This document shows positions 12,014 to 56,702 of a DNA stretch of 64,000 nt, piece by piece. How positions within the stretch are numbered: position 1 is the first letter of the stretch; each line of letters begins with the position of its first letter. This DNA comes from Candidatus Omnitrophota bacterium (GTDB taxonomy: Bacteria; Omnitrophota; Gorgyraeia; JABMRN01; RBG-13-46-9): contig JBDRHE010000059.1 in NCBI GenBank assembly GCA_043817155.1, forward strand, positions 65,540 through 129,539. The letters run 5' to 3'. Below the pieces are notes generated by a model that was not told the DNA's origin, searched no databases, and saw only the letters and a list, made by a program, of their open reading frames with translations. The translations under genes were made by a program, and so were the position numbers.

Positions 12014-12019
12014 CGCCCG

Positions 12020-33852: not shown

Positions 33853-35316
33853 CTACCTGAAAACCTTTGTGATCGGAAACAGAAAGATCCTTTTAGCCAG
33901 TCTCCTTAGAAATAAGAGCGGATGTGTTTTATAGAAATGCATCTTGAGATAGTAATACCCCCTCTTGAAGGTCCTTCTAAGATCATCTCTTGTCCAATTT
34001 TCCGTTGATACGCTAAAACTTGATATGTATAAGTTTTCGAGTAGGCGTTCTGCATCAACATATTTATTTTCAGTGCATATCTTATAAAGCTCCGACCCCG
34101 GATATGGCGTTGCGACAGATACAAAAGCGTCATAAATTTTAACTTCCCTGGCGAAACGGTATGAGTCCCAGATCTGATCCAGTGTTTCGCCGGGCATCCC
34201 TATAATTAAAAAAATCCCGGTCTGGAGTCCTATGCTTCTGGCATACTTGATCAATCGTTTTACCTTTTCCAGATCCAGGGGTTTTTTTATGATATTCTTT
34301 AAAACATCTTTGTTGCCTGACTCAACGGCAATATTCAATTTATAGCAACCGGAATCTTTCATCTTCTTGATAAGCGCCTCATCGAGAGCGAATGCCGCGA
34401 CGCCATTAGGAGTATCCCATTTAAGGTTCAGGCGCTCTTCTATCATAAGATCGAAAATCCGTTCACCGCGCTTCACATCCAGGGTTACATTATCATCTTC
34501 AAAAAGAAGTTCTTCAATGTCGTATTTGTCTTTTAATTCTTTCATCTCCTTGATCACATTTTCAGGACTTCTCTTACGAAAATTCTTGCCCCATACGTGA
34601 TGGGCCGTACAGAAAGCGCATCCTATGGGGCAGCCCCTCGATGTCACAATGGGAGAAAACTTTTCGCACCTTCTTGAACCGTGTGAAGAAGATAATCCAA
34701 AATATTTCGTTATACCCAAAAGATGCCATGCGGGAAAAGGCAGGCTATCGAGGTCTTCTATAAAATATTTTTTGGGACACACCTTTATTTTGCCGTTCTC
34801 TCGAAAAGCAATGCCATCTAGCTTATCAAACGTCGCGCCGTTTTCCAGACAGTCTATTAAAGTTTTCAGGGTGTATTCGCCTTCGCCTATCACCACAAAA
34901 TCAACATTCCTGTCCTCCATTACGGCTTCAGGTAATACCGATGGGTGCGCTCCGCCCGCTATAACAACCATGCGGGAATCTATCTTTTTCGCCAATCGAT
35001 ATATTTCATGAGCGTTTTCAGATTGCCTGGAAAAGAGATTGCTTACGCCCAGTATATCCGGAGAGAACCTCTTTATCTCATCTTCGATCATCGCGAAAGG
35101 AGCGCCTATTCGTACGGTATCTTTATCTATATGTGTCCTGTTATGGAACCCTTCTATAAGCGAATCGAAGATCTTTACCTCTATTCCACGTTCTTCCAGC
35201 ACAGCGCCCAGATACCCCAGCCCCAGCGGAGGAATGGGGTTGATATCGGTCGCGTCCCTGGATGTAAACGCCGGAGGAGTCAGGAGCATTACCTTTTTTA
35301 TTTTTTTTGAGCTCAT
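33853..35316 (-). CDS. B12-binding domain radical SAM protein
   Basis: VIGEGE; SRGCPIGCAFC. Confidence 0.8.
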   Translation of the reverse strand: MSSKKIKKVMLLTPPAFTSRDATDINPIPPLGLGYLGAVLEERGIEVKIFDSLIEGFHNRTHIDKDTVRIGAPFAMIEDEIKRFSPDILGVSNLFSRQSENAHEIYRLAKKIDSRMVVIAGGAHPSVLPEAVMEDRNVDFVVIGEGEYTLKTLIDCLENGATFDKLDGIAFRENGKIKVCPKKYFIEDLDSLPFPAWHLLGITKYFGLSSSHGSRRCEKFSPIVTSRGCPIGCAFCTAHHVWGKNFRKRSPENVIKEMKELKDKYDIEELLFEDDNVTLDVKRGERIFDLMIEERLNLKWDTPNGVAAFALDEALIKKMKDSGCYKLNIAVESGNKDVLKNIIKKPLDLEKVKRLIKYARSIGLQTGIFLIIGMPGETLDQIWDSYRFAREVKIYDAFVSVATPYPGSELYKICTENKYVDAERLLENLYISSFSVSTENWTRDDLRRTFKRGYYYLKMHFYKTHPLLFLRRLAKRIFLFPITKVFR

Positions 35317-35320
35317 CTTC

Positions 35321-36295
35321 TTAATCTATTTCCCGTAAAGCCAGGTTAGCAAGTGTCTCTAAAAATTCCATCCTTTGCATGGGTATGCGCTTATGCCTTC
35401 CATAGCCATTCCGCATAACATCCACGGTATCCTTGACAGAAGCCAAATAAAAGAGCGATTTGTCAATACCCAATAAAAAACAATAATCCTCCAAATGATG
35501 ATTGACAAGCTCAAACGTTAACGAGTCCCTCTTGAAAAAATGATTAAAGTTTTCAATATGGTCGATCTTTGCGCCACAAAATAACCCTGCGTGAAACAGC
35601 AAAAATTCTATATCCAGAAACGGCAGCGCATTATCACAATAATCCTCCCAATCAGTTACACAGACCCTACCGTCATTCTGGATTAAGATGTTGTTAAAGC
35701 TAAAATCGCCCTGCAAAGAAGAAAGTGGGAGATCCTTTGGGCGGCGCCGTTCAACAGCATTTACTATGCGATCTAGTTTCCTTCTCAATCCATGATCCAA
35801 TTCCATTCCGGCAACGCTTTTGGTAAACTCATTCTTAAAAATGGACCACGGTAGCACGCTACCTTCCTTTCTCGTTACTAAATAGAAGTTCTTGATCCAG
35901 TCCATCGCCTTTGCCAGAAAGATCTTTAAATCATTATACTTATGTAATAACACGAATCTTCCATGTATGTATTCCTCAACAAGAATCATCGTAAAATCGT
36001 CAATGGACCCTAAAAAAACCGCTTTCGGTATGGTGCCCTTATAATCACCTCCGAGAAGCTGCCCTGCCCGCTCAAGAGCTGAAAATTCTTCCTTAAGCCG
36101 CGAGAGATCAACGGGTCTCCTATTCACCTTTACGAAATAACTGGGATGGGCATCGTTATTCTCAAAAAGGAGCAGATTCATGCAGGCTTCCGACGTCTCC
36201 TGACCACTCAGTTTTATTATGTTGAGGCGGTCCGGAATATCACGTTTGCGATTTACTGATCGCCAATTCTCTTTTATGTATTCTTCGATCATCAC
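35321..36295 (-). CDS. Aminoglycoside phosphotransferase / choline-ethanolamine kinase-like small-molecule kinase
   Basis: Brenner-like motif NILIQNDGRVCVTDWEDY (catalytic loop and DWE) typical of APH/LicA-type kinases. Confidence 0.5.
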   Translation of the reverse strand: MMIEEYIKENWRSVNRKRDIPDRLNIIKLSGQETSEACMNLLLFENNDAHPSYFVKVNRRPVDLSRLKEEFSALERAGQLLGGDYKGTIPKAVFLGSIDDFTMILVEEYIHGRFVLLHKYNDLKIFLAKAMDWIKNFYLVTRKEGSVLPWSIFKNEFTKSVAGMELDHGLRRKLDRIVNAVERRRPKDLPLSSLQGDFSFNNILIQNDGRVCVTDWEDYCDNALPFLDIEFLLFHAGLFCGAKIDHIENFNHFFKRDSLTFELVNHHLEDYCFLLGIDKSLFYLASVKDTVDVMRNGYGRHKRIPMQRMEFLETLANLALREID

Positions 36296-36300: not shown

Positions 36301-37425
36301 TTATTTCTCAACTGTAATAAGGTAACTCGGGACAAAATGTTTCATAAGATTAAACCTGGTAAGGGCCAGGGGAATCAGTCTCTTTATGCCCCTTGCGCCT
36401 CGGAGCCCGTAGTGCCCGTAATAATATTTGATCTGTCTATCGCTATCCAGGGGGATAATAACATCTAATTCCCTGTATGAGGGCGATGCTGCGTAGAACG
36501 ACGACGATTTAAATCCGACTCTCTTTAAGATTTTCTTATATCCATTATATGAATGGGTATACTCAGAATAGTCTTGATTCTTAGTGATCCTCATATAAAT
36601 ATCTGCCATCCACCTGGGCATTATCGATGAAAAAGACATTGCCGTATGCGGATCCGGGAAACCGAAGAAGTGCTTATAGAAATATCTGTTTTCGATAGCT
36701 ATTAAAGCTGTCCCCCCTTCCTTTAAAACACGATGGATCTCTGAGAGCGCCTTCATCTGGAGCGATGTTGGACTATCAGGCCGCGGTGGCTTTGTCTCTC
36801 TCGCTTTTCCATAATGCTCCGTCAAAACAAAATCGGAGTCTGATCCCAACCACTCCAGAACTCCGATGAGTAGCACGATATCAAAAGAATTGTCGGAAAA
36901 CGGAAGTTTGTGGGCAGACCCCAGGGCTATCTTCATATTATCGATCTTATCCTGTTTTGTTCTGACTGACAGAAACTGAAGTGTTTCATATGTTGTATCC
37001 ATGGCGTAAACTTCCTTTGCGTACCTTGACAGGGGAGCCGCGACCCCGCCCCACATCGAACCTATATCAAGGACCTTCTTGTCCTTCAGGCAGGGAAGAA
37101 TATATCGAAAATCGATCCTTTTTTCGGAACCCACATGGTCTATCACGTTCCCTTTGAGATGTCTGCGAACAGCATCTTTCCAATTGCCACTTATAGCGTC
37201 GGCGTTTAACTCTTTCATTTTTTCTTTTGGGACATTACACCAATATCGTTCTTTTTCGGCAAATATGGGGATGCCATCTCTCACCTCAAATTGATGTTGG
37301 CAGTCTTCGCACACAAGACGGCTATCGCACATATGTAAATTTCCCAGACATTGGACGCAGCGATAGGCCTCCTCTAATACCGTCACTTTATCCATATAGC
37401 TTCCTTTGCAGATTCTCGCACTCAT
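36301..37425 (-). CDS. SAM-dependent methyltransferase with N-terminal zinc-ribbon (Trm112-like) domain
   Basis: N-terminal CxxC...CxxC ribbon; motif I LDIGSMWGG. Confidence 0.6.
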   Translation of the reverse strand: MSARICKGSYMDKVTVLEEAYRCVQCLGNLHMCDSRLVCEDCQHQFEVRDGIPIFAEKERYWCNVPKEKMKELNADAISGNWKDAVRRHLKGNVIDHVGSEKRIDFRYILPCLKDKKVLDIGSMWGGVAAPLSRYAKEVYAMDTTYETLQFLSVRTKQDKIDNMKIALGSAHKLPFSDNSFDIVLLIGVLEWLGSDSDFVLTEHYGKARETKPPRPDSPTSLQMKALSEIHRVLKEGGTALIAIENRYFYKHFFGFPDPHTAMSFSSIMPRWMADIYMRITKNQDYSEYTHSYNGYKKILKRVGFKSSSFYAASPSYRELDVIIPLDSDRQIKYYYGHYGLRGARGIKRLIPLALTRFNLMKHFVPSYLITVEK

Positions 37426-38218
37426 AATCCAATCGGTTTTTAAAAAGGGCGAGATATAGCCTCAACAAAAAAGTCACGCACATCCACACTAAAAACATGC
37501 AATAGTATATCCACAAAACGCGTATTGTAAAAAACGCCTCTATCAGGATAAAGAGACAGATTCCATCCACAACGCATGTATTGTGAGCAAACAATACCTT
37601 ATCTATCCAGTCTTTTATCTTTCGAGCACCCGGTTTCTCTAGCTTATCATTCGTCCGCTCAGTTTTGCCTTCACCTGTATTTGTCGACCTGGATCTGGCA
37701 AATGCGTAGATAAATCTCTCTTGAGCGCTCTTATATATATCAAGGGCAAAGACTGTTGGAATCACCGGAGCTAAATAAAAAAATATTGGACTCGTTGTAT
37801 TGCCCAAATATATACCCAGGCCGGCCCATAGAGTAATCCAATCGACAGACGCTGAGTAATAATCGAGTATATCTCCGCCTGCTGATTTTTTGTTTTTCAT
37901 ATGAGCAAGCGAACCATCCGCCCAATCCAAAGTGGGTTTTAGAAATAATAAAACGACGGCAACCAATACACATATCACAGGTGGAAGCGCCAATAGGATG
38001 CCTGCGCAAACACTTAGGGCAATGTAAACAACTGTAACGGTGTTTGGAGAAATGGGGGTCTTTAATAACGTAAATACAATAACGCTTGCGCACTCACTAT
38101 AAAAATTTCTTTTGAGCCTACGATATGAAAGACCCCACTTAAATACATCCGGATAGGATCCCATGTGACGTTCGTAGATCTTATGCCTTACTTCGGAATA
38201 TGTTAATGCCATTACCAC
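37388..38218 (-). CDS. CDP-alcohol phosphatidyltransferase-family membrane protein (putative phospho-alcohol/phosphonate headgroup transferase)
   Basis: Polytopic protein with DG..AH.......GG.ILD...D block (DWADGSLAHMKNKKSAGGDILDYYSASVD) approximating the CDP-OH phosphotransferase signature. Confidence 0.5.
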   Translation of the reverse strand: MVMALTYSEVRHKIYERHMGSYPDVFKWGLSYRRLKRNFYSECASVIVFTLLKTPISPNTVTVVYIALSVCAGILLALPPVICVLVAVVLLFLKPTLDWADGSLAHMKNKKSAGGDILDYYSASVDWITLWAGLGIYLGNTTSPIFFYLAPVIPTVFALDIYKSAQERFIYAFARSRSTNTGEGKTERTNDKLEKPGARKIKDWIDKVLFAHNTCVVDGICLFILIEAFFTIRVLWIYYCMFLVWMCVTFLLRLYLALFKNRLDYECENLQRKLYG

Positions 38219-39687
38219 CCCATTTTTTCGTAGTATTCCTCTTTCAGTCCTCTAAAACATTTATTGCCTTCTCGGTCCAAGCGCTCGGCTTTTCTGATAA
38301 TTGGATATCTTGACTTTGGAAGATGAGCATAGAGAGGCGCTGTTCTCCATAATCCTATAATGTCTTTTTCGCTAAAACCATTGTTGCGCAAAACGTACTT
38401 ATTCTGGAAATAATCCTCACCGATAAAGTCTCTGTCTATCATATCATTCTCTTCGCAAATGCGTCTGAGAACAGAGCCTTTGTACGGAGTAAAAAAGAAG
38501 GTGGTCACACCTTCCGGTTTTGATCTTCGCATCAATTCGATCCCGTCGAAAATCATCTTTCGCGTTTCAAATGGCAGGCCGATTATCAAGTTCATCGAAA
38601 AGCCGATCCCGTACTTATGCAATATGCGCGCTGCCTCCGTTACATGCTTATTGGAATATCCGCGATTGAGATATTTCTTTCTATACGCTTCGTTCCCGCT
38701 TTCGACGCCTACACTTACGCGGATACAATTCAACTCCGAAAGCATCTTTCCAGTCTCTTCATTTATTGTTTCGGGCCTTGTCTCCACCCAAAAAGGCAGA
38801 CGGTATCTCTTATATACAGCATAGTAGTCTTTCAATCTCGCCTTACTTACCGCCAAAAAAGATTCGGAGACCTTGAAAACGAACTCAGGTTTATACTTTT
38901 CCACTAATAGCGAATACTCTTCGTCTATTTTTGAAATGGACTTCAGTCTGTACCACCTACCTAATTGCCTGAATTGATCGGTAAGATAGGCATCTGCGCA
39001 ATATGTGCATTTATACGGGCATCCCCGCGATAACTCGATACTTACCGTTCGGCGGATCTTACCCATCATCGGTTTCATCAAAAAGCGATCTCCAAATGCA
39101 GAATAGTCAGGTACAGGCAAAGTATCTATGTTCACGAGGGAGACAGGCCTATTTTTGCGCCATTTTGTACCGACCCTAATCCAGAAACCGGGTTGATCTT
39201 TATAGCTTTTACCATCAGAGATACAGTTGCACAAATCGACAAATGTATTTTCGGCCTCGGATACCGATATAAAATCCACGCCCGTAAGCGCAGAGCAAGA
39301 TTCCGGCCAACATATCGCATGTACCCCACCTACGGCAACCTTAATTTGACTCGAACTGATAATATCGCATGCTGAATTTAGAAGTTTTTTAAAGATGTGG
39401 AAACTGGGTTCAACTACGGAAAACCCTATCACTTCAGGTGAAAAACTTTGGATTTTAGCGCGAAAATCCTCGCACATATCGCTTGAGTTGTATTGCAGGG
39501 TGCACGACTTAAACTGTAAGCCCTCAACCCTTAATTCAGTAGAGCTCTTATAGGCCTGGCGGTAAAATGTCGTATGGAACAATTCTACCTCATGGCCCGC
39601 TTTTTTAAGCGATGTGATTACGCGCGTAACCCCTATAGGCACGACATTGCCCTGCGGCATATCACAATAGACCATTAAGATCTTCAT
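38212..39687 (-). CDS. B12-binding domain radical SAM protein
   Basis: SRGCPYKCTYC; N-terminal cobalamin-binding domain. Confidence 0.8.
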   Translation of the reverse strand: MKILMVYCDMPQGNVVPIGVTRVITSLKKAGHEVELFHTTFYRQAYKSSTELRVEGLQFKSCTLQYNSSDMCEDFRAKIQSFSPEVIGFSVVEPSFHIFKKLLNSACDIISSSQIKVAVGGVHAICWPESCSALTGVDFISVSEAENTFVDLCNCISDGKSYKDQPGFWIRVGTKWRKNRPVSLVNIDTLPVPDYSAFGDRFLMKPMMGKIRRTVSIELSRGCPYKCTYCADAYLTDQFRQLGRWYRLKSISKIDEEYSLLVEKYKPEFVFKVSESFLAVSKARLKDYYAVYKRYRLPFWVETRPETINEETGKMLSELNCIRVSVGVESGNEAYRKKYLNRGYSNKHVTEAARILHKYGIGFSMNLIIGLPFETRKMIFDGIELMRRSKPEGVTTFFFTPYKGSVLRRICEENDMIDRDFIGEDYFQNKYVLRNNGFSEKDIIGLWRTAPLYAHLPKSRYPIIRKAERLDREGNKCFRGLKEEYYEKMGW

Positions 39688-39756
39688 ACAACCTGTTCTC
39701 CTGGATCTATCGTTTTTACCGCAGTTACTCTTACTTTGTTCATAAATAAGCTCGCG

Positions 39757-40461
39757 TTAATCTATGTTTAAACTCTTCGCTTTCTTCAAATCTTTAGGAA
39801 AATCGATCTCTACCCATTTTAAACCGTCTATCAGCTCATACGATATGGTCATGCTCTTAAAGAGATCCGGTATGATAAACTCATAACCGGCCTGCCTCTC
39901 TCCTGCAATAATTTTCTTCTCGAGCAATGCCTTCAATCTTCTTGAGCCAGGCAACGAGAATTTTGTAACGCCGGCCCATTCTCCCAGAATGCCATAATCC
40001 CCGCTCAGTCCTCTGGCCAGGCGAACGGCCCGGCCATTAGTGAATCCGACCCGCACCGCCTCGTCATCATTGCCCGATTTTTGGTCGATCAAAAAGAAGT
40101 TCTGTTTTTTCGATCTAAACACCGTTTCTATAACATCCCTTTCAAAGTACGTGTCCGAATCTATAAGCAACGTACTCCCATTCAAATGCTCTCTTGCCCT
40201 CCACAGAGAAAGGATGCTGCCTTCTCCAAAATCGTCATTGTTGATAAAGCTGACCTTTAGCCTGTGTTTTTTAACTTTATCAATTACTTTTTTTGCCTTG
40301 TATCCCACGACAATAACTATATTTCGCACACCGCATTCCTTGAGCATCTTTATCATTCGTACGATAAGCGCTTCTTTGTTTACCTCCGCGAGGCATTTCG
40401 GGTCATTCGTATAACCCCTGAGACGCTTTCCCTCCCCGGCAGCAAGTATGATGGCCTTCAT
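39757..40461 (-). CDS. LicC-like sugar/phospho-alcohol nucleotidyltransferase (putative CTP:phosphonate or phosphocholine cytidylyltransferase, PntC/LicC family)
   Basis: MKAIILAAGEGKRL NTP-transferase motif; ~234 aa; overall resemblance to LicC. Translationally coupled to PhnW. Confidence 0.65.
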   Translation of the reverse strand: MKAIILAAGEGKRLRGYTNDPKCLAEVNKEALIVRMIKMLKECGVRNIVIVVGYKAKKVIDKVKKHRLKVSFINNDDFGEGSILSLWRAREHLNGSTLLIDSDTYFERDVIETVFRSKKQNFFLIDQKSGNDDEAVRVGFTNGRAVRLARGLSGDYGILGEWAGVTKFSLPGSRRLKALLEKKIIAGERQAGYEFIIPDLFKSMTISYELIDGLKWVEIDFPKDLKKAKSLNID

Positions 40462-41522
40462 AATAGTTTCTTAAAAATAGCTAAAAACATATTTATATCT
40501 TTTTTTGAAATAACGCCGACAGTTCCAAGCCGAAAGGTCGTATCCTTAAGTTCTCCCGGTGAGGCGTATATAACAAATCCCCTCTTTTTGAATTCATCAT
40601 GAAGCCATGGATAACTCTTGCCTTTCGGCATATAGACTGCGGTCATTGTATTTGACATCAATCTTCCCGGCAGAAAAAAACGCATGCCGAGTTTTTTTAA
40701 GCCCCTTCGCAGATATCCGGTCGTATCTCTATATTTTTTTATTCTATTATGGACGCCTTCGCTCTTAAGCTCTTTTAACGCCTCATCGAATGCGTAAAAC
40801 GCCTGGACAGGAGGCGTAAAAGGCGTCTGGCCACCCCTCTCTGTATCAAGATGCCGGGAGAGGTTCGTATAAAAAGAATGTGACGTGCAATCCTCTATCG
40901 TCTTAAGAAAGCGTTTACTCGCTACCGCAAATGATATACCTGGAACTGCGCGGATACATTTATTTACTGACCCTATAACGACATCTATGCCCCAACCCTT
41001 AATGTCGATATTCTCGCTTGCGATGCTGCTTATGGCGTCGGTTAAAACAAGTCTCTTATATTTTTTTGCCACCAGAGATATCTCTTTTAGGGGGTTGACA
41101 AGGCCGGTTGTCGTTTCGTGATGCACAATATAGACAGCTCCGAAACGCGCCTGCCTCAATTTAGATCGTATGTGACCAAGATCCGGCAGACTGCCCCATT
41201 TGCACTTCATCTCTTCAATTTTTATATTGCATACTCGCGCGATATCCGCGGCGCGCTCTCCATAGATCCCGTTTGATACCACTAATATCTCTTTATCGTA
41301 CCCACCAAACGCCGCTATGACGCTCTCGATAGCCGCTGTACCCGAACCTCCCAGAAAGACGCTTTCGTATCCATCGCGCACACCCAAAATATCCATAAGA
41401 TTCGCCCTGGCACCGTTTAATAGGTCTGAAAATTCCGTATCCCGGTGGCTAATATCGGGTTTTAAAAGCGCCCTTCTTACTCTTTCGGATATGTTCGCCG
41501 GTCCCGGTGAAAATATTACCAT
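40458..41522 (-). CDS. phnW: 2-aminoethylphosphonate:pyruvate aminotransferase (PhnW-type class V aminotransferase)
   Basis: Class V AT N-terminus (IFSPGPANIS); PLP-lysine region SVNKCIRAVPGISF. Located directly downstream of PEP mutase and phosphonopyruvate decarboxylase. Confidence 0.7.
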   Translation of the reverse strand: MVIFSPGPANISERVRRALLKPDISHRDTEFSDLLNGARANLMDILGVRDGYESVFLGGSGTAAIESVIAAFGGYDKEILVVSNGIYGERAADIARVCNIKIEEMKCKWGSLPDLGHIRSKLRQARFGAVYIVHHETTTGLVNPLKEISLVAKKYKRLVLTDAISSIASENIDIKGWGIDVVIGSVNKCIRAVPGISFAVASKRFLKTIEDCTSHSFYTNLSRHLDTERGGQTPFTPPVQAFYAFDEALKELKSEGVHNRIKKYRDTTGYLRRGLKKLGMRFFLPGRLMSNTMTAVYMPKGKSYPWLHDEFKKRGFVIYASPGELKDTTFRLGTVGVISKKDINMFLAIFKKLL

Positions 41523-41550
41523 TATCCACCCCTTATCTGATAGGTCTCTT

Positions 41551-43056
41551 TTACATATATTCTTTCAAATATATCTCTTTCAATCGCTCAAATTGCTTAT
41601 CGCCTTCTGCGTCAAACTTTTCACACCTTTCGATTGCCGGCCACATCTCTTCGGGAAACTTCACGTACATAGAAAATGTCCTCTGGAGCCCTTTGATCTC
41701 ATGCGGCGGCAAATGGGGCATTCTTATGTCGGTATCCAATCTGTAATCTCCCGCTATTGCCTTTGGATCGAGGTATCCCTTATCGATAGATAGCTGCCGG
41801 AGCTTGGTACCCCTGTAAGGTGTGAATATATTCACGATGACATTATCGGCCTTGAGCTCTCTGTTCAGTCTTATCGTATCGAAAATAAGTTTTCGTGTCT
41901 CGGTAGGAAACCCGATTATGTTATTGGCGCATGTTCTTATTCCTGTTTTTTTTGCTATACGAAATGCTTTGGCAATCGTATCATTCTTTATCTTTTTGTT
42001 GAGTATGTCTGTGCGGAATTTGTCATTACCGTGCTCTACACCGATACTGATACCCTCGCAACCAACACCGCGCAATAACGAGATCCTATCTTCCATTACC
42101 GAATCGGGGCGCGTCTCAATCCAAAAAGGTAACCCTATTTTTTTGTAGTGTTCTATGAAAGATGCGAATCGTTCTTCGCTCATCATAAGAAAATTTTCGG
42201 CTATAATATATATGTATTGAAGCCCGTAACGCGAACGTTTCTTTTCTATCTCGTCCATTAAGATCTCTATGCTTTTTTCTCTGTAATAGCGTCCCTGGGT
42301 CTTATAGATATCCTGTAATTTTTTGTTGCAACAGAAGGCGCAGTCATAGGGGCATCCTCTATTCATTTCGAACGCGCCGGCTATGTAGATCTTGCCGCCC
42401 ATCGGCTTGTAGAAACGTTGTTTTTCGTATTCTTCCCAATCTTGATATGGCAGGTCATCCAAATTCACGAGTGCCCCTTGGGGGCTACTGTGAATCCTGC
42501 CATCTCTCTTTGTCCAGATATTAGGTATATCCTCATAAGCCTTACCATGCCGCAAACGCTCGGCGAGTTCCAACAGAGCCCTTTCTCCCTCACCCACGCA
42601 TATCATATCTACAGCTTCTTCCTTTATCACCTCATCGGGAGAAAACGTAACATGCACACCTCCCATAATTGTCGGGATACCGCATCCTTTTATGGCATCT
42701 AACAGTTGCAGCCCGATCAAGTAAGTAGATTCCACGACAGAAACGGCTATGAGATCCGGCTCAAATTCCCGTATAAGCTTCTTAAAATCGGAGGTGATCT
42801 CCGTCTCTTTGGGGAAAATTCCGAGCGCCGCAAAATCCGTATATTTCACCTGTAGTGTAGCTACACGGGCATCGTCACCTGTCCTTTCCCGCGTTTTGTA
42901 GAATGTCGTATCAAAGAGTCTAACTTCATGTCCTGCTTGTTTTAAACAACCCGCGAGAAGCGATATGCCAAGGGGTATGAGATTATCTAAAAAACTATTG
43001 GCCAGAACCAATAATACCTTTGTTCCGCGTTTTTTGTCTTTTGCGCCCTTTTGCAT
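41551..43056 (-). CDS. B12-binding domain radical SAM protein
   Basis: NRGCPYDCAFC; CVGEGE cobalamin-domain motif. Confidence 0.8.
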   Translation of the reverse strand: MQKGAKDKKRGTKVLLVLANSFLDNLIPLGISLLAGCLKQAGHEVRLFDTTFYKTRERTGDDARVATLQVKYTDFAALGIFPKETEITSDFKKLIREFEPDLIAVSVVESTYLIGLQLLDAIKGCGIPTIMGGVHVTFSPDEVIKEEAVDMICVGEGERALLELAERLRHGKAYEDIPNIWTKRDGRIHSSPQGALVNLDDLPYQDWEEYEKQRFYKPMGGKIYIAGAFEMNRGCPYDCAFCCNKKLQDIYKTQGRYYREKSIEILMDEIEKKRSRYGLQYIYIIAENFLMMSEERFASFIEHYKKIGLPFWIETRPDSVMEDRISLLRGVGCEGISIGVEHGNDKFRTDILNKKIKNDTIAKAFRIAKKTGIRTCANNIIGFPTETRKLIFDTIRLNRELKADNVIVNIFTPYRGTKLRQLSIDKGYLDPKAIAGDYRLDTDIRMPHLPPHEIKGLQRTFSMYVKFPEEMWPAIERCEKFDAEGDKQFERLKEIYLKEYM

Positions 43057-44516
43057 TAAGTGACCCTTCCCATGATCATTTCCGAAAGTTCAGGGTGTTT
43101 TATCAGAAATCCTTCAAACTTGTTTTCCCACGCCTTGGGATTCCTTCTTCTAGAAGCCTCGTTAAATTCTCTCGTTCTCCTCTCGACCATTTTTTCCAGC
43201 TTCTCGGGCTCTATGCCGTAATTATCCGGTGAATCTTTGGGAATACGTATCTTGACTTTTTTGAGATCCATCCCAAAATCTCCGCCGTATAGATAGCCCT
43301 TCTCCAGGCTGTAATCATATAACTCGGAACCCGGAAGAGGACTTGCTATAAAAAAAGAGATGCTATCCGCCTCTGTTTGTGAAGGAAAATCGAGCGTCTG
43401 ATAGATCTCTTCCTTTGTCTCTCCGGGAAGTCCGACCAAAAATAAGAGATGGACGCTTATTCCGTTCTCATGCGCCTTGCGAATGAGATGTTTCGACTTA
43501 TCCAAATCGACATTCTTGTGTACAATCTCCTTCAACACCCGGGGAGAAGCGCTCTCTATAGCCATGCTTATCTGGTAACAGCCGCTCTGGCCCATGACGC
43601 GCAGAAGTTCTTCGTCAACGGTATTTGTCATAAGGCCGTGGGGGGTACACCAGTGGATGTTGAGATGCTTCATCCTGCGAAAGAGTTCCTTTGCCCTTTT
43701 CGGATCAGCGGTAAGATTATCATCGATAAACTGAACCTCTCCGATATTATACCTTTCTTTGAGTAGCTCTATCTCTTCCATAATGTTATCAACGCTTCTC
43801 TTTCTGAATTTCCTTCCCCAGTAATTTACCGTAGAACAGAAATTGCACTTTCCGGGACATCCTCTCGATGTCAATATTTGAACAACCCTGTTACTCTTAA
43901 AAAAAGGCGCGTAGGGTACGGCAATATCGAAATAACGTTCTAAATCGACCAGATGCCTGGCGGGGAGAGGCAATGAGTCGAGGTCTTCGATCCGTGAGGT
44001 CGGCTGGTTTATTATTACACGACCTCCTTTTTTATAAGCTATTCCGTCTATATCGAGATCTCCCTCTAGGAGTTTCACGAGTCTCTCTTCCCCCTCTCTC
44101 ATAACGATATAATCGACATTGCGATCCGCCAAAATGTCCCGGGGGTAAAGAGACGGATGGAGCCCACCTACTATGACGGTAATGTCGCCCGCTTCTTTCG
44201 CCAGTTTACATATCTTAAGCGTCTCCTGTATGCGTGCGGAAAATAGGGAACTGACGCCTACTGCATCCGGCTGAAAAGTCTTTATTCTCTTTAGGATCTC
44301 TTGATCGCTTAAACCATAGTGAATGTACCCCCCTCCGAGATCCGTTATTTCGTTATAGCCCTCGGCGCTTGAATCCAATATATTTACCTTATAGCCGTGC
44401 TTTTCCAGGGACGAAGCAATGTACAGTAAACCTAAAGGCTCTCCGATTCTGCGGATACTGTCATTGGGCATAACCATGCCAGGTTCTATTAACATGATCT
44501 TATTAATTTTCTTCAT
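43056..44516 (-). CDS. B12-binding domain radical SAM protein (start placed at internal MKKINKIM, which gives an ATGA overlap with the upstream gene)
   Basis: SRGCPGKCNFC; MREGEE cobalamin-domain motif. The ORF track extends to 44648, but those 44 upstream codons overlap the preceding decarboxylase subunit. Confidence 0.75.
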   Translation of the reverse strand: MKKINKIMLIEPGMVMPNDSIRRIGEPLGLLYIASSLEKHGYKVNILDSSAEGYNEITDLGGGYIHYGLSDQEILKRIKTFQPDAVGVSSLFSARIQETLKICKLAKEAGDITVIVGGLHPSLYPRDILADRNVDYIVMREGEERLVKLLEGDLDIDGIAYKKGGRVIINQPTSRIEDLDSLPLPARHLVDLERYFDIAVPYAPFFKSNRVVQILTSRGCPGKCNFCSTVNYWGRKFRKRSVDNIMEEIELLKERYNIGEVQFIDDNLTADPKRAKELFRRMKHLNIHWCTPHGLMTNTVDEELLRVMGQSGCYQISMAIESASPRVLKEIVHKNVDLDKSKHLIRKAHENGISVHLLFLVGLPGETKEEIYQTLDFPSQTEADSISFFIASPLPGSELYDYSLEKGYLYGGDFGMDLKKVKIRIPKDSPDNYGIEPEKLEKMVERRTREFNEASRRRNPKAWENKFEGFLIKHPELSEMIMGRVT

Positions 44517-45088
44517 TCCAGCGCTACTCCTGCCATCTCTTGTTTGATTCTGGATGTAAGCTCCTCCGGAGAAACGGCAACTCTCTTGGATGCTCTTTCG
44601 GTTCCGGAGAGACTTATTTTCAATAAAATAAAGACTGGACCTTTGCAAGTCAAGATCTCGCCAATCGAATCCCTAAGAATCTTCAAGTTGCTGAGCTTAA
44701 AAACCTTTTTATACCCGGCTGATTTCGCTATCTTCGAAAGGTCGACACGCCTGGTAAGCGTTGGCTGTCCCCCCGTGGATTCGTAACTCTCATTATCCAA
44801 TACAATGTGCGCTAAGTTAGGAGGATTGTGGCTCGCGATCATACCAAGCGATCCCATATCCATCAGAACGCTGCCGTCACCATCGAATATAAAAACTTTT
44901 TTTTCTGTACTTAGCGCCATACCCAATCCTACAGAGGAGACTAAACCCATGGAGCCCACGATGTAAAAATTGCCAGGTCTGTCGCTCTTTGAAAATGCGT
45001 AACGGGAGATATAGCCTGTCGTAAAAAGAGCGATATCTTCGCTTCCCAGATGATTCAACATAATGGCCAAAGCTTCACGACTCTTCAT
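44513..45088 (-). CDS. Phosphonopyruvate decarboxylase, beta subunit (TPP-binding C-terminal domain; ComE-like)
   Basis: ThDP-binding GDG motif FDGDGS...NESYESTGGQ. Confidence 0.7.
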   Translation of the reverse strand: MKSREALAIMLNHLGSEDIALFTTGYISRYAFSKSDRPGNFYIVGSMGLVSSVGLGMALSTEKKVFIFDGDGSVLMDMGSLGMIASHNPPNLAHIVLDNESYESTGGQPTLTRRVDLSKIAKSAGYKKVFKLSNLKILRDSIGEILTCKGPVFILLKISLSGTERASKRVAVSPEELTSRIKQEMAGVALE

Positions 45089-45573
45089 CCAATTATTCCT
45101 TTTTTAACGATAAGAGCGCAGGGAACCGAATGCCGTCTCATTGTCTCAAGCGCCCAATCAACGTCTCTCTTATAATGCCCGCTTAAAACCCGATAAGGTA
45201 TCTCCAGACTTTCGAGGAGATCGGTTGTTATTTTACCCATAATGCTATGCTGCGGCGCATCTTTTCCCTGAAACCCGCGCCATGTAATAAACATAAGTAC
45301 GGGGATCTTGTAAATAAGGTTAAATGACGTGAGTGCATTTATTGTGTTGCCCAACCCTGAATTTTGCATTAGAATGCAAGACGGTTTCCCGGCCAAATAG
45401 GCTCCGCTTGCCACGCCCAAGGCAGCATTCTCTCTTACCGCCGACACGTATTTAACTTCACGGTCATTCAATATTACCTGAAGCATACCCTGAAGAATAG
45501 AGCAAGGTACTCCCGAATAGAATAGCAAACCGTTATTTTTTAAATAAGTAATAAGTCGTGACGCGTTTATCAT
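45085..45573 (-). CDS. Phosphonopyruvate decarboxylase, alpha subunit (TPP pyrimidine-binding N-terminal domain; ComD-like)
   Basis: YSGVPCS...ENAALGVASGAYLAG pattern of the sulfopyruvate/phosphonopyruvate decarboxylase family; ATGA overlap with the beta subunit. Confidence 0.7.
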   Translation of the reverse strand: MINASRLITYLKNNGLLFYSGVPCSILQGMLQVILNDREVKYVSAVRENAALGVASGAYLAGKPSCILMQNSGLGNTINALTSFNLIYKIPVLMFITWRGFQGKDAPQHSIMGKITTDLLESLEIPYRVLSGHYKRDVDWALETMRRHSVPCALIVKKGIIG

Positions 45574-47207
45574 ATAAACTTTTTTAGAAGAGAACAGGCC
45601 AGCTTATAGTCCTCCATGGAGTGAATCTCCATCCAACCTGAGTCCGCTTCCATACAGAAAACATCGAATCCTGAATCGACTACTTCACTCAGAAAGTCAG
45701 CCAGGCTTGCCTTCTTAAACCTCCTCCTATTCTTCTTATAGACCTCTTTGAAAATCTTTACGCCCTTTGGCGAGAGAAATGTCATCCCCGGGAATTCTCC
45801 GATTGCTTCTTCGCGATCTATCCTTGAGCCTATTCTTCTTACTAACTTCAAGGAGTCGGCAGAAAGGAGCCTTCTCGCCTTTCGCGATTTCCCGTCCGTA
45901 ACCACGAAATCGACCTTCTTCTCGGGTCCATAATCCTTGGAGTCCCATGTTTTGTCAAGTAGGATCGTTATATCCTTCCTGCTCTCCGCCATTCTCTGCA
46001 ATATAATGTGGTCAAATAAAACATCACCGTAAATAATAAACGCGCGCTGATTGACTTTATCCAGCGCCTCCATAATCGAATAGAGTACGCCGGTCTCTCT
46101 ATATAAGTCATTATTGATGACCTTTACGCCCGGAACGGTAATTTTATCCTGCTTATAGCCGGCAATAACGTTAACGTCATACACCCTGCAACGATTCAAT
46201 GTTTCAAGCTGCTTTTGAAGTAAGGGTTTTCCGTTTATATCGAGCATAGATATGGGAATGTCATTCGAAATATCCTTCATGGAATGCTCTTCAAGATGAT
46301 CGCCGGCAGCGGGAATTATCGCAACGATCCCATCTTTTGCGGATTCTGAAAAGATCTTCTCATCCTCTTTCATCTTATGCATACCCTGAATGTCAAAAAC
46401 CTCCTTCATCGAAGCGATATTATTTTCGACAATAGAGGTCGAGCCGTGCTTCATGATCTCCCTGAACGTCTTTTGCATTGACCGGATAGCCGCACGTATG
46501 CCATGATTTGCGTAAATGACCATTTTAACATTCATCTTCTCGAGCTGCCGCACGGTTACTCTAAAATACGTAGTGGGCACTACCACAAGCGGCGCCTTAT
46601 TTTTCCACCTCCTTATAAATTCCTTTATCTCCTTATCGGTATTGGATTTGCTGTGTATCAATATTGCATCGGCTCCTGCCTGGGCGTAGGCATTTGCCCT
46701 TTTCACAGCTTCGCTTACTCCCCATCCGGCTATTAATGCCTCGACCCTGGCAATAACCATAAAATCTTTTCCCGTCTGCGCGTTCTTTGCGGCGAGTATC
46801 TTTCCTACGAACTCGGATAACGGCGCCAGTTCCTGCCTGCCCGGTACAAAGCTATTGACTTTCGGAAAATGCTTGTCTTCGATCGATACAGCCGCTATTC
46901 CTGCGGCCTCGTACTTCTTAACCATATGAATCACATTGTTTGAGTTCCCGAAACCGGTATCACAATCCGCCACGATCGGTATAGAGACGCTCTCGTTCAT
47001 TGATATGGCGCAATTTAGAAAATCGGTCATGGTCAGTATATTCGCGTCGGGCACTCCAAAGCTTGTTGAGATCTCAAGCCCGCTTGACCACACACAGTCG
47101 AAACCCGCGTTTTCAGCCAGCTTCGCGCCCATTGCGCTATGAGCCCCCATAACACGAATAATGCCATTACGCCTGAATAGCTCTCTTAGCTTCTTTGCTT
47201 TATTCAT
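45570..47207 (-). CDS. pepM: Phosphoenolpyruvate phosphomutase fused to a C-terminal nucleotidyltransferase (cytidylyltransferase-like) domain
   Basis: N-terminal ~290 aa with PEP mutase/isocitrate-lyase superfamily blocks (VMGAHSAMGAKLAENAGFDCVW, PIVADCDTGFGN, SIEDKHFPKVNSF). C-terminal ~240 aa carries an NTP_transferase fold (IIPAAGDHLE...GKPLL). Confidence 0.8.
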   Translation of the reverse strand: MNKAKKLRELFRRNGIIRVMGAHSAMGAKLAENAGFDCVWSSGLEISTSFGVPDANILTMTDFLNCAISMNESVSIPIVADCDTGFGNSNNVIHMVKKYEAAGIAAVSIEDKHFPKVNSFVPGRQELAPLSEFVGKILAAKNAQTGKDFMVIARVEALIAGWGVSEAVKRANAYAQAGADAILIHSKSNTDKEIKEFIRRWKNKAPLVVVPTTYFRVTVRQLEKMNVKMVIYANHGIRAAIRSMQKTFREIMKHGSTSIVENNIASMKEVFDIQGMHKMKEDEKIFSESAKDGIVAIIPAAGDHLEEHSMKDISNDIPISMLDINGKPLLQKQLETLNRCRVYDVNVIAGYKQDKITVPGVKVINNDLYRETGVLYSIMEALDKVNQRAFIIYGDVLFDHIILQRMAESRKDITILLDKTWDSKDYGPEKKVDFVVTDGKSRKARRLLSADSLKLVRRIGSRIDREEAIGEFPGMTFLSPKGVKIFKEVYKKNRRRFKKASLADFLSEVVDSGFDVFCMEADSGWMEIHSMEDYKLACSLLKKFI

Positions 47208-47234: not shown

Positions 47235-48815
47235 TTATCGATGGGCAAAGCCCAACTTCCCTTTTACCTTTTTAAAAATTAACCTTATTTCTTCTTTATC
47301 CGTACCCGCAATTTTGGGAAATAGATATACGAGTCCGGCAATAACCGCGAAATATATAACCATCTCCGTTACGAGCCTCGCAATAAGAAGGCTGGTTCCC
47401 CGGTCTTTTAAAAAAAACCCAACAATCGCTTTCAAAAGATACATAACAGAGGCTAAGATCGCCCCGCAATAGATCTGGTGCCACCAGAAATGCCCGGGTC
47501 GAATTTTAAAGAATCGACAATTATAAACAAGATAAACTTGAACAACAACAAATTGCCAGATTACAGTCTTAAGGGCAAGGCCCAGCGCGCCCAATTCTAA
47601 TCCGGGTATCGCGAAATTTTTTGGCGCGAGAAAATAATAGGTTAAAGGAATGCCTGAAATCATGGCAATTACGGATATGTTTCTAAGCTGTGCGGTTCTT
47701 TCCGTAGCGTAAAAAGCGGTCCCTCCTAACTGGCCGTATACCTGGTGGATAGGATAAAAAGCCATGATCACGACAACGGTCGTCGCCGGTAAAAATTTCG
47801 GGCCTGCGATCAGTCCCAGCAATTGTTTCGCGTGAAAAGCAAGAAATACGGCCAGTAACAAGGTAAGAAAGTACATTATTTTTAAAAAGCGTGAAAATAT
47901 GCTCGAGGCGCGCGCGGTGTCATGTTTACCGATCGAACTGGCCATTTCACGGTTATATATGGCCAGGATCGACGTAGTAAAAAGAGTGGCAAATGCCGCC
48001 CAGCTGGAGGCTATATGAAAGTACCCCTGATTTATCGATCCTGAGAATCTCTGCAGAATCATCCTGTCAAAATACTCAAATACAAGGCCCACCAGGAGAA
48101 TGGCAACAAGCGGTGAGCAAAACTTATAGAAATAATCAAAAAACTCTTTCAGTTTCCCTTTTACCCTGCCTTCCCAGTATAGGTTCCTGTTGGGAATTAT
48201 TATCCAGAATATAATAGAAAGAGAAATGGTCGCCGAGCAGATCGTCTGTATCGCTATATATCGTCCCAGGTTTAATAATCCGTTCAGAGCGAAATATACA
48301 AGTACCGCGATATTGAGAAGCCCTATACAAAGGCTGATGATCTGGGCGGGCCTGGTGAATCCCTTGCTATCACTCAATTGTTTAAGCGTGCTTACTGAAA
48401 AGAAGACCCAGTCAAAAACCAGTACCCAGATTATATATTTTAGCCCTTGCCCGGGCCAGATAAAGCTGGATATCCCTATCATCACCGCAAATCCTACCAG
48501 AGAGAGCGTAATCAAAAGCTGTCCTACTAACCATACGGAATAGGCCTTGACGAGGGGACCGGTCTTTTCATGCTTTGAATTATAGTTAAAGAACGCGCTT
48601 GAGGTGCCAAGGTTTAAAAAATTCCTGAGCGCGGTACTCACCTTCATCAGGAAGCTAAAGTCCCCCAGCTGCTTCGGCCCCAGCGCCCTGGGGACAATGC
48701 CCGCAGTAACAAGGCTTACGAAGAAAAAGACTGCGTTACTAAATAACGTTACAAAGTATCTCTTGCCTACAGAGTCTACAGCACGCGGTTTTGTGTCATC
48801 TTTAACAATACTCAT
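47235..48815 (-). CDS. Wzx-like oligosaccharide flippase (MOP superfamily polysaccharide biosynthesis protein)
   Basis: 526 aa, ~12-14 TM helices; N-terminal region typical of RfbX/Wzx. Confidence 0.65.
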   Translation of the reverse strand: MSIVKDDTKPRAVDSVGKRYFVTLFSNAVFFFVSLVTAGIVPRALGPKQLGDFSFLMKVSTALRNFLNLGTSSAFFNYNSKHEKTGPLVKAYSVWLVGQLLITLSLVGFAVMIGISSFIWPGQGLKYIIWVLVFDWVFFSVSTLKQLSDSKGFTRPAQIISLCIGLLNIAVLVYFALNGLLNLGRYIAIQTICSATISLSIIFWIIIPNRNLYWEGRVKGKLKEFFDYFYKFCSPLVAILLVGLVFEYFDRMILQRFSGSINQGYFHIASSWAAFATLFTTSILAIYNREMASSIGKHDTARASSIFSRFLKIMYFLTLLLAVFLAFHAKQLLGLIAGPKFLPATTVVVIMAFYPIHQVYGQLGGTAFYATERTAQLRNISVIAMISGIPLTYYFLAPKNFAIPGLELGALGLALKTVIWQFVVVQVYLVYNCRFFKIRPGHFWWHQIYCGAILASVMYLLKAIVGFFLKDRGTSLLIARLVTEMVIYFAVIAGLVYLFPKIAGTDKEEIRLIFKKVKGKLGFAHR

Positions 48816-55944: not shown

Positions 55945-56702
55945 ACTTTTACTCGTTTTGAATAATTATCTCTTAAATGATCGTAAATAGGATTTCCATA
56001 TTTTTCGAGCTGATACTCAAGATAGCCGAAGTCCTCCGGAAGGTCAACCTCGGTTGTAACGGGAGTAACGAATCCAAGCATAGCTGTCCCGTATAAAGAT
56101 CCGGTCTCTTCTACAAAGGATCTCTTTACTATATCAACATACCCGTTTGCGTGATAGGCTTTTGGGAAGAGTTGTCTTGGAAGATTGTAATACTCGGGCC
56201 TCTTGTCTCCGGGGAAGAAACCCTTAAAGAATCCTTTCTCATCAAGCTGGAATTCCTTTTGTGGAGGCTCTGCAAGTTCGTGCGCCGACCGCAGTGACGT
56301 AGAATCCGCCTTCTCTCCGATAAGCGCGACAGCCCGATCTATCACTTCTGCGTCTCTTAGCGGTGTAGTAGGCCGGAGGTGCACCAAGAGACCGGCAGCT
56401 CCATTCTCATTTTCCTTAAACCAGGAGATGGCATGCTGAAATAATTCAAGATCTGTAGATCTATCTTGCGATATCTCCGCCGGCCGCAAAAATGGTACCT
56501 CTGCTCCAAATGCCTTTGAGATATCTGCGATCTGGTCAGAATCGGTCGATACAATTACCCGCTCTATCTTCTTAGAGAGCGACGCTGCCAATATTGAGTA
56601 AGCGATCAAGGGATACCCGCCAAGGAGTTTAATATTCTTACCCGGCACGCCTTTCGAACCGCCCCTTGCGGGTATCAGGGCTATTATATCGGCTCTCTTC
56701 AT
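55941..56702 (-). CDS. Acylneuraminate cytidylyltransferase (CMP-nonulosonic acid synthetase, NeuA/LegF/PseF family)
   Basis: N-terminal IALIPARGGSKGVPGKNIK motif diagnostic of CMP-NeuAc/CMP-Kdo synthetase family. Confidence 0.75.
   Translation of the reverse strand: MKRADIIALIPARGGSKGVPGKNIKLLGGYPLIAYSILAASLSKKIERVIVSTDSDQIADISKAFGAEVPFLRPAEISQDRSTDLELFQHAISWFKENENGAAGLLVHLRPTTPLRDAEVIDRAVALIGEKADSTSLRSAHELAEPPQKEFQLDEKGFFKGFFPGDKRPEYYNLPRQLFPKAYHANGYVDIVKRSFVEETGSLYGTAMLGFVTPVTTEVDLPEDFGYLEYQLEKYGNPIYDHLRDNYSKRVKV

Follow-up and report, generated by a model that had tools for sequence, protein, structure and literature searches.

A predicted phosphonate head-group module with a cobalamin radical-SAM enzyme in its core, embedded in a surface-glycan locus of an Omnitrophota bacterium

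INTRODUCTION

What does an uncultured bacterium of an anaerobic candidate phylum build with genes for 2-aminoethylphosphonate (AEP) that lie in the middle of a surface-glycan locus? We have addressed this question in a 64,000-nt stretch from a metagenome-assembled genome (MAG) of a Candidatus Omnitrophota bacterium (contig JBDRHE010000059.1, positions 65,540 to 129,539), which we call the window and whose own numbering we use throughout. Around half of the phosphonate pathways in bacteria are believed to serve the decoration of cell surfaces, and both the products of the commonest type of phosphonate cluster and the steps that follow cytidine monophosphate (CMP)-AEP are uncharacterised (PMC8942020). 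A first-pass annotation of the window, made from the sequence alone, had proposed a complete AEP pathway within a glycan operon, followed by nucleotide activation, a head-group transferase and, by analogy with Fom1/Fom3 of the fosfomycin pathway, methylation by flanking B12-binding radical S-adenosylmethionine (SAM) enzymes. Our analysis leads us to propose, with moderate confidence, that the genes form a Pnt-type phosphonyl-tailoring module, which would decorate a nonulosonic-acid surface glycan exported by a Wzx flippase with AEP or a C-methylated derivative of it.

RESULTS

A complete gene set for AEP

We scanned the window open reading frames (ORFs) of at least 130 aa with Pfam and NCBIfam, and all those that matched a family lie on the minus strand. 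Each gene named in the first-pass annotation proved to be an intact ORF on that strand, with the boundaries and domains claimed for it and E-values far past chance. Proteins of the module are 100% identical to NCBI entries (P0001, P0121 and P0241) that carry the annotation of a Candidatus Omnitrophota MAG. The gene set for the route from phosphoenolpyruvate (PEP) through phosphonopyruvate and phosphonoacetaldehyde to AEP is likewise complete, as had been proposed, with a PEP mutase (PepM), a split phosphonopyruvate decarboxylase (Ppd) and an aminotransferase of the AEP type all present by family.

The PEP mutase domain (46338-47207, minus strand) comprises residues 1-290 of a 545-aa fusion protein whose whole gene spans 45570-47207. 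It matches PF13714 with 198 bits (E=2e-58) and passes TIGR02320 marginally (320.9 bits against a cut-off of 319.55), and it scores below the cut-offs of the sister families: 287.8 against 374.4 bits for phosphonopyruvate hydrolase, 185 against 354 for methylisocitrate lyase and 112 against 420 for CPEP mutase. By these cut-offs we ruled out a phosphonopyruvate hydrolase or an isocitrate-lyase paralogue. The EDKxxxxxNS motif, which the first-pass annotation had named as diagnostic of true PEP mutases, is present as EDKHFPKVNS at residues 110-119, and its columns hold the majority residue in around 90% or more of 116 PepM homologues. The best match in the Protein Data Bank (PDB) is the PEP phosphomutase 5UNC (373.6 bits); a look-up for sequences exactly equal to the window PepM gave no record. 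Besides, PepM is coupled to the consumer of phosphonopyruvate, with the Ppd alpha gene overlapping its stop codon by 4 nt.

The alpha subunit of Ppd (45085-45573, minus strand) carries the N-terminal domain of thiamine pyrophosphate (TPP) enzymes (TPP_enzyme_N) and overlaps its neighbours by 4 nt on each side; the beta subunit (44513-45088, minus strand) carries TPP_enzyme_C. Both halves scored higher with the Ppd model TIGR03297 (154.3 bits for alpha, 175.3 for beta) than with the sulfopyruvate decarboxylase models (127.3 for alpha, ComD, and 150 for beta, ComE), and their best solved relatives are RhiE (9IZ3_A, 133 bits) and RhiF (9IZ3_B, 101.7 bits), in agreement with the two-subunit phosphonopyruvate decarboxylase proposed earlier. 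Given the lower scores of both halves and the lack of any coenzyme-M gene among the window ORFs scanned, the reading as a sulfopyruvate decarboxylase of coenzyme M synthesis was ruled out.

Regarding the aminotransferase (40458-41522, minus strand), its PhnW-like label was borne out. This class-V enzyme (Aminotran_5) of the AEP-transaminase (PhnW/AepZ) type has TIGR03301 as its top family by a wide margin (320.2 bits), and its top four PDB matches, with 9KK8, 1M32 and 6PD1 among them, are all AEP transaminases (175-185 bits). It stays under the cut-offs of NF010006 (245.8 against 296 bits) and TIGR02326 (237 against 400 bits). A catabolic role as PhnW was rejected, since PepM and Ppd are present and PhnX and PhnA are absent.

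The AEP genes had been described as four consecutive and translationally coupled genes. Coupling holds at most junctions, with 4-nt overlaps at PepM/Ppd alpha, Ppd alpha/Ppd beta, Ppd beta/radical-SAM and aminotransferase/nucleotidyltransferase, and 1-nt overlaps between two radical-SAM genes and between a radical-SAM gene and the membrane protein discussed below. The genes are not consecutive, since two B12-radical-SAM genes (around 3 kb) and a 28-nt gap part the aminotransferase from Ppd beta. We compared the module with related loci, numbered here with an L. L001 and L003 are the neighbourhoods of PepM homologues at 68-71% identity, and L150 is that of a 52%-identical homologue of the radical-SAM enzyme next to Ppd beta. 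All three conserve a block made up of a ~620-aa protein, Wzx, the PepM fusion, Ppd alpha, Ppd beta, a B12-radical-SAM enzyme, a class-V aminotransferase, a nucleotidyltransferase and a membrane protein of the cytidine diphosphate (CDP)-alcohol phosphotransferase family (CDP-OH).

Two nucleotidyltransferase domains

The first-pass annotation had drawn its nucleotide-activated intermediate from two nucleotidyltransferase domains. The standalone protein (39757-40461, minus strand) matches PF12804 with 53.4 bits and carries the canonical signature AAGEGKRLR…PK. Its LicC-like label is supported by its best solved relative, LicC (1JYK, 69.8 bits), which is followed by PntC of Treponema denticola (6PD1, 45.9 bits), both nearly full length; it also matches a model of the 'Sden_1164 family'. 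At the two specificity positions of PMC6697681 it has an Asp at Tde-E104/LicC-D105, which is LicC-like, and a Glu at Tde-E196/LicC-D192, which is Tde-PntC-like. PntC enzymes make CMP-AEP (Rice et al. 2019, PMC6697681), and the standalone protein is likely a cytidine triphosphate (CTP):AEP cytidylyltransferase.

The domain fused to PepM (45570-46337, minus strand) is NTP_transf_3-like and matches PF12804 with 37.1 bits over residues 321-411 only, in a match that starts at profile position 18. The claim that PepM carries a C-terminal nucleotidyltransferase domain thus stood as to its presence and not as to its canonical signature: the test for GxGxR…PK failed, as the protein has AAGDHLEEHSMKD…IPISML in its place. 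In the alignment with the standalone enzyme (27% identity), the signature Arg pairs with Ser and the Lys with Ile. The variant motif is strongly conserved in 116 fusion homologues and is therefore under selection, yet it forms no canonical active site. Because the fused domain is atypical, we assign CMP-AEP formation to the standalone enzyme, which would be the safer candidate. Fusions of this type are on record: around 60% of Ppm enzymes carry a fused nucleotidyltransferase domain, with PF12804 in 33% (Rice et al. 2019, PMC6697681). We also found a 58%-identical PepM-nucleotidyltransferase fusion in L004 and L005, from a Candidatus Scalindua MAG, with no Ppd, aminotransferase or radical-SAM gene nearby and followed only by an EamA transporter gene; hence, the fusion also exists outside the seven-gene core.

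A transferase subfamily without the fourth aspartate, and its acceptor

The CDP-OH membrane protein had been put forward as a head-group transferase acting on glycan or lipid. Its ORF spans 37388-38218 on the minus strand and its likelier start is the ATG at 38212, which gives a gene at 37388-38212 for a divergent polytopic protein with the motif DWADGSLAH-x8-GDILD-YYS-A. Membership of the family was upheld. PF01066 was passed weakly (25.6 bits against a cut-off of 22), and a search with the protein returned at least eight sequence homologues; a profile of eight orthologues retrieved AF2299 (4O6M, E=8e-22) and IPCT-DIPPS (E=4e-10). The AlphaFold model has a pLDDT (predicted local distance difference test) of 75.8, and its top 17 Foldseek matches in the PDB are all CDP-alcohol phosphotransferases, albeit with modest TM-scores (0.28-0.44). 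The full catalytic motif was not upheld: in D96xxD99G…A-H…G113xxxD117 the first three Asp, both Gly and the Ala are kept, and the complete signature D1xxD2GxxARx8GxxxD3xxxD4 failed at the fourth Asp.

At E<1e-30 an exhaustive search with the profile gave 130 cluster representatives, and at E<1e-10 it gave 662; no fusion protein is among the top 150 matches. The motif was readable in 140 representatives, taken from these 150 and the window protein, and none of the 140 has an Asp at the fourth position, which is Ala in 77, Gly in 45, Ser in 13, Thr in 4 and Glu in 1. Judged by these sequences, the group is a defined subfamily and not a decayed gene, and we describe the window protein as a divergent member of the family, which probably acts in the manner of a head-group transferase. 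In two related loci, L146 and L149, LicD replaces or accompanies the CDP-OH protein, which fits a transferase using a CMP- or CDP-activated head group.

As for the acceptor, one could object that the product is a phosphonolipid and not a phosphonoglycan. The characterised CDP-OH_P_transf members among the PDB matches are mostly lipid synthases, and the same gene set has been classed as a predicted phosphonolipid cluster (PMC8942020, PMC5987646). The surroundings speak against it, and we regard it as unlikely, albeit the main rival. A Wzx-type flippase gene (Polysacc_synt, PF01943 with 32.9 bits; 47235-48815, minus strand) is separated by 27 nt from PepM, which lies downstream. In L001 and L003 the gene that directly precedes PepM is 60-63% identical to this one, and the arrangement in L150 is alike. 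The module sits inside a ~60-kb nonulosonic-acid surface-glycan locus, which comprises two nonulosonic-acid synthase genes (a NeuD-NeuB fusion at 3758-5410 that passed TIGR03569 and a short NeuB at 57960-58841) and a PseF-like CMP-nonulosonate synthetase gene (55941-56702). It also holds DegT aminotransferases, dehydratases/epimerases, two UDP-N-acetylglucosamine 2-epimerases, GT2 and GT4 glycosyltransferases, three PMT_2/ArnT-like GT-C proteins, one MBOAT and a single Wzx flippase, so the glycan-operon context of the first-pass annotation was confirmed. Besides, neither an acyltransferase gene nor any other gene for phospholipids adjoins the module, the LicD that takes the CDP-OH slot elsewhere transfers head groups to glycans, and the closest solved relative, AF2299, groups with IPCT-DIPPS, which uses a soluble acceptor. 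We favour a phosphonoglycan because of the Wzx gene next to PepM, the conservation of this adjacency in three other loci and the glycan genes all around.

A B12-radical-SAM enzyme in the core

The radical-SAM enzyme encoded between Ppd beta and the aminotransferase (43056-44516, minus strand), here the core enzyme, has a B12-binding domain (PF02310, 84.4 bits) and a radical-SAM domain (PF04055, 101.6 bits). Its ORF extends to 44648, and we place the start at the ATG at 44516, which gives 486 aa as in the NCBI protein (P0121), and not at the upstream TTG. All 13 family members compared keep the cysteines of the CxxxCxxC motif (C220, C224 and C227). By far the best family is NF038361 (Sden_1168), with 390.2 bits (E=1.5e-116) over nearly the full length and more than 200 bits ahead of the next; we read the core enzyme as a putative sister clade of the Sden_1168 family and not the same equivalog. 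SD_1168 itself shares a similarity-network cluster with Fom3, MoeK5 and HpnJ (reviews PMC9204698 and PMC12931638).

Several observations tie the core enzyme to the phosphonate pathway. Orthologues at 48-52% identity (48-50% in an all-against-all BLASTP) are encoded between Ppd beta and the aminotransferase in L001, L003 and L150; with the window, four independent loci thus conserve it as a member of the core. Natural fusions join family members to a class-V aminotransferase (P0155) or a nucleotidyltransferase (P0163, P0227 and P0228). In L146, L147 and L149, the PepM, Ppd, aminotransferase, nucleotidyltransferase, and CDP-OH or LicD genes are found no further than 10 kb from a family member, in gene orders that differ, with an unsplit Ppd in L146 and L147 and a PepM fused to PF01467 in L146 and L149. 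Finally, PepM was nearby in five of seven loci with a radical-SAM identity of at least 44%, in one of 14 between 35 and 44% and in none of 67 below 35% (loci of at least 10 kb, among the matches listed); two of the five positive loci had been fetched via PepM, which biases the first figure. A scan of genome contigs with the radical-SAM alignment, used as a negative control, gave only relatives of up to 40% identity among the matches listed, Shewanella denitrificans not being one of them, and a scan of metagenome contigs with the single protein gave two close relatives, L086 and L087. Another family member, P0218 (797 aa), carries intein-splicing and HNH endonuclease domains and is apparently an intein-containing radical-SAM enzyme.

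The natural fusions, the linkage in rearranged loci and the PepM enrichment support, as the most economical reading and by analogy, a role of the core enzyme as a Fom3-like C-methylase of AEP or CMP-AEP. Fom3 is described, in the review PMC9204698, as methylating cytidylyl-2-hydroxyethylphosphonate. We searched the literature for C-methylated AEP compounds and for Fom3-like or Fom3-homologue enzymes and found nothing relevant. The Fom1/Fom3 analogy, which had been extended to all three flanking radical-SAM genes, holds up for the core enzyme by position, fusions and PepM enrichment, and no link could be demonstrated for the two others. The second gene (41551-43056, minus strand; B12-binding and Radical_SAM domains) encodes a protein 26% identical to the core enzyme and 35% to the third (38212-39687, minus strand), its paralogue. 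Both are absent at these positions from L001, L003 and L150, and the second is present in the closest relatives, L086 and L087; on this comparison, both are taken to be lineage-specific insertions into the operon.

These insertions raise the question of whether the radical-SAM genes have anything to do with the phosphonate at all. They could encode C-methylases for the sugars or nonulosonic acids in the glycan, and simply be interleaved with the AEP genes, in which case the head group would be plain AEP. The seven B12-radical-SAM and six class-I SAM methyltransferase genes are indeed spread over the entire glycan locus, the L003 relatives of the two inserted genes adjoin a CMP-nonulosonate synthetase gene, and the radical-SAM gene of L148 lies beside NeuB genes with no PepM in reach. 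The core enzyme fits this picture poorly, given its fixed position in four loci, the fusions of its family to aminotransferase or nucleotidyltransferase, the linkage to PepM in rearranged loci and its enrichment next to PepM relative to other B12-radical-SAM clades. We consider such independence distinctly unlikely.

A different chemistry must also be weighed, with the core enzyme as a P-methyltransferase and a phosphinate (C-P-C) head group as the end product of the pathway. The best family bears the name 'Sden_1168 family B12-binding radical SAM P-methyltransferase' (390 bits), a match to the PhpK family reaches 108 bits, and in work by Allen and Wang in 2014 SD_1168 is said to have P-methylated demethylphosphinothricin in vitro. 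P-methylation requires a P-H phosphinate substrate, and the window ORFs scanned hold no HEPD/PhpD-type dioxygenase, no iron alcohol dehydrogenase and no second PEP-mutase-family (carboxy-PEP mutase) gene. With no enzymes present to generate the P-H substrate, and with a score under the family cut-off, we judge this role very improbable. The physiological reaction of SD_1168 may itself be C- or P-methylation, with an unknown substrate (PMC9204698), and a 2026 review places it among the Csp3-methyltransferases (PMC12931638). Finally, a diffusible, antibiotic-like phosphonate, to which the likeness of PepM, Ppd, the Fom3-like enzyme and the nucleotidyltransferase to early fosfomycin steps might point, is hardly credible in a window where an aminotransferase replaces the reductase, where Wzx, glycosyltransferase and nonulosonic-acid genes surround the module, and where there is no Fe-alcohol dehydrogenase, HppE-type epoxidase, FomD-type hydrolase, ATP-grasp or nonribosomal peptide synthetase (NRPS) ligase, or dedicated exporter or resistance gene.

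Downstream partners and other features of the window

Three minus-strand genes follow the CDP-OH gene. A class-I SAM methyltransferase (36301-37425; Methyltransf_11, 64.8 bits) has a 56%-identical orthologue after CDP-OH in L003 and a 33%-identical one in L145, and is possibly an N-methylase. A kinase-fold, APH-like protein (35321-36295) scores 22.1 bits with PF01636, under the cut-off of 23.2, and has no significant sequence relative in the PDB; a 33%-identical orthologue is present in L003, and L147 has a methyltransferase::APH fusion beside a radical-SAM gene. Next to it lies a second Sden_1168-like B12-radical-SAM gene (33853-35316; NF038361, 305.7 bits), whose product is a paralogue of the core enzyme (39% identity) and 63% and 45% identical to orthologues in L003 and L145, respectively. 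All three genes come after CDP-OH in L003, and L145 has part of them. It is a speculation that the trio may modify the head group further.

In total, the window has six class-I SAM methyltransferases, one SPASM radical-SAM gene (56706-57551) and seven B12-binding radical-SAM genes, at 17966-19501, 29268-30824, 33853-35316, 38212-39687, 41551-43056, 43056-44516 and 51710-53098. The related loci L145 and L147-L150 are likewise rich in radical-SAM genes. This abundance, together with that of the methyltransferases, suggests heavily C-methylated surface glycans in these anaerobes.

Upstream of Wzx, a gene at 48820-50694 (minus strand) encodes a 624-aa protein with weak matches to Glyphos_transf (19.4 bits) and to the BFO_1060 family of glycosyltransferases (35.9 bits). 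It is 20-23% identical (E=7e-9) to proteins of around 600-630 aa at the same position in L003 (6619-8430, listed under Pfam LIC12162) and L001 (5656-7560), and L150 has a 629-aa gene there (3902-5791). We take it, with uncertainty, for a putative glycosyl or nonulosonic-acid transferase of the GT-B type, fast-evolving and with weak TagF-like similarity.

The G+C content of the window is 39-49%, its GC skew is negative throughout, and an Rfam scan gave no match. Two homologous elements of around 280 nt (8470-8753 and 60035-60315; also 59434-59587 and 9005-9029) contain nested long inverted repeats, with outer arms of 35-38 nt and inner arms of 25 nt. Oriented opposite to each other, they are found in the two largest non-coding gaps, with about 51 kb of the glycan locus between them, and have no Rfam match; each of these gaps adjoins a small MarR/TrmB-like winged helix-turn-helix gene (7705-8259 and 58867-59397). 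They could be repeats of the miniature inverted-repeat transposable element (MITE) kind, structured leaders or island boundaries. Besides, direct and inverted repeats of around 55 nt cluster at 57622-57919, in the gap that separates the short NeuB gene from that of the SPASM radical-SAM protein. An asparagine-synthase-like gene is found in two ORFs (GATase_7 and Asn_synthase, 10121-11188 and 11225-12013) and is intact in L147 (659 aa); the split may be genuine, or it may reflect a frameshift, a pseudogene or an error of sequencing.

DISCUSSION

The mechanism that we propose for the phosphonyl-tailoring module has six steps. The PepM domain would convert PEP into phosphonopyruvate, and the heteromeric TPP decarboxylase of the RhiEF type would turn the latter into phosphonoacetaldehyde, pulling the unfavourable equilibrium of the mutase forward. 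The class-V aminotransferase would then give AEP, which the standalone LicC/PntC-like cytidylyltransferase would activate to CMP-AEP. The Sden_1168-like cobalamin radical-SAM enzyme would modify the activated phosphonate, the likeliest reaction being a Fom3-like methylation of an sp3 carbon. Finally, the CDP-OH enzyme would take the phosphonyl head group from its CMP donor and attach it to a hydroxyl group on the lipid-linked glycan at the inner face of the membrane, and Wzx would flip the product. From the family identities, order, coupling and conservation of the genes, which are read from the sequence, we infer the cytidylylation, the chemistry and substrate of the methylation and the acceptor.

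Several points weigh against this mechanism. The nucleotidyltransferase domain fused to PepM comes without canonical catalytic residues, and the aminotransferase scores under the equivalog cut-off of TIGR03301 (320.2 against 360.8 bits). The CDP-OH protein has an Ala for the fourth Asp and a His for the motif Arg, and CDP-alcohol phosphotransferases classically act on lipids. The core radical-SAM enzyme is under the cut-off of NF038361 (390 against 575 bits), its next-best family matches include HpnJ (second, 176 bits), BchE and AprD4, and B12-radical-SAM enzymes also catalyse chemistry other than methylation. The physiological substrate of SD_1168, as already mentioned, is unknown (PMC9204698). 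Finally, L145 and L148 hold the radical-SAM, nucleotidyltransferase and CDP-OH genes without PepM within 10 kb; therefore, the module may not be strictly phosphonate-specific, and may also serve phosphate-ester head groups.

Regarding these two loci, L145 belongs to a Riflebacteria MAG and has its module (5508-12350) beside an aminotransferase, a transaldolase-family and a transketolase-like gene, neighbours that suggest a version of the module for a non-phosphonate head group; L148 has its module at 9265-12264. Neither has PepM or Ppd within 10 kb.

The locus and its relatives offer a concrete, testable hypothesis on the substrate of a B12-radical-SAM clade; for SD_1168, the best-studied relative of this clade, no physiological role is known (PMC9204698). 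They also point to a distinct transferase subfamily for phosphonate attachment, and would add Omnitrophota and further uncultured anaerobes to the organisms with phosphonoglycan biosynthesis, which bears on the sources of phosphonates in the environment.

The comparison with known systems helps to separate what is ordinary in the locus from what is not. The PepM-nucleotidyltransferase fusion and the split Ppd are already precedented (PMC6697681, PMC12141560), and so are, given the clusters described in those two papers and in PMC8942020 and PMC5987646, the presence of two nucleotidyltransferases and the CDP-OH partner. The AEP core is ordinary; what appear to be new are the B12-radical-SAM enzyme in the core and a subfamily of transferases that lacks the fourth Asp. 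RhiEF (Nakamura et al. 2024; PDB 9IZ3; PMC12141560) likewise has separate alpha and beta subunits encoded by adjacent, overlapping genes, but serves the pathway of rhizocticin, a peptide antibiotic of Bacillus, whereas the window Ppd would feed a surface decoration.

The Pnt and Lic systems (PntC of Treponema denticola, Tde1415, and of Atopobium rimae; LicC/LicD) share with the window a LicC-like cytidylyltransferase beside AEP and glycan genes, CMP-AEP as the proposed donor and, through L146 and L149, the use of LicD in the transferase slot. The window itself differs in having no LicD, with the CDP-OH-family membrane protein in that slot, and in a nucleotidyltransferase that is mixed at the two specificity positions.

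In Fom1/Fom3 and in the SD_1168 system of Shewanella denitrificans, as in the window, a cobalamin radical-SAM enzyme is encoded with PepM, Ppd and a cytidylyltransferase. Fom3 acts on a cytidylylated C2 phosphonate in fosfomycin synthesis, and the best family of the core enzyme is Sden_1168, for which it scores under the cut-off. In contrast to the fosfomycin system, the window has neither FomD nor HppE, and an aminotransferase takes the place of the alcohol dehydrogenase; therefore, the substrate would be an amino and not a hydroxy phosphonate.

A close parallel in gene content is the commonest ppm neighbourhood, 'Burkholderiales_CDP-OH' (Group 1 in the grouping of Yu et al. 2013). As described by Li and Horsman (2022, PMC8942020), its seven-gene core comprises a Ppm-PntC fusion, Ppd, AEP transaminase, a second PntC, a 2-oxoglutarate (2OG)/Fe(II) oxygenase and two genes of the phospholipid type; for a lichen Nostoc, a cluster of similar make-up has been drawn, which includes a CDP-alcohol phosphatidyltransferase (PMC5987646). 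The window has all five of the Ppm-PF12804 fusion, Ppd, the AEP transaminase, a second, standalone PntC-type nucleotidyltransferase and CDP-OH. It differs in its split Ppd, in its Wzx, glycosyltransferase and nonulosonic-acid genes instead of phospholipid genes, and in its host, from an anaerobic candidate phylum. The oxygenase of Group 1, predicted to give 1-hydroxy-AEP, is absent, with no 2OG-Fe(II) oxygenase match among the window ORFs scanned, and the cobalamin radical-SAM enzyme is found in the core instead. A further feature, read within the subfamily of the window CDP-OH protein, is the lack of the fourth Asp. Tentatively, and with more doubt than conviction, we propose that the clade of the core enzyme stands for an oxygen-independent tailoring of AEP, which might C-methylate CMP-AEP, AEP or phosphonoacetaldehyde to a so far undescribed head group such as 2-aminopropylphosphonate. 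Further changes to this head group might come from the radical-SAM enzyme at 33853-35316 and from the SAM methyltransferase, and the CDP-OH subfamily without the fourth Asp could be a dedicated CMP-phosphonate:glycan phosphonyl transferase. The whole would then parallel, in anaerobes, the Group 1 clusters with their oxygenase.

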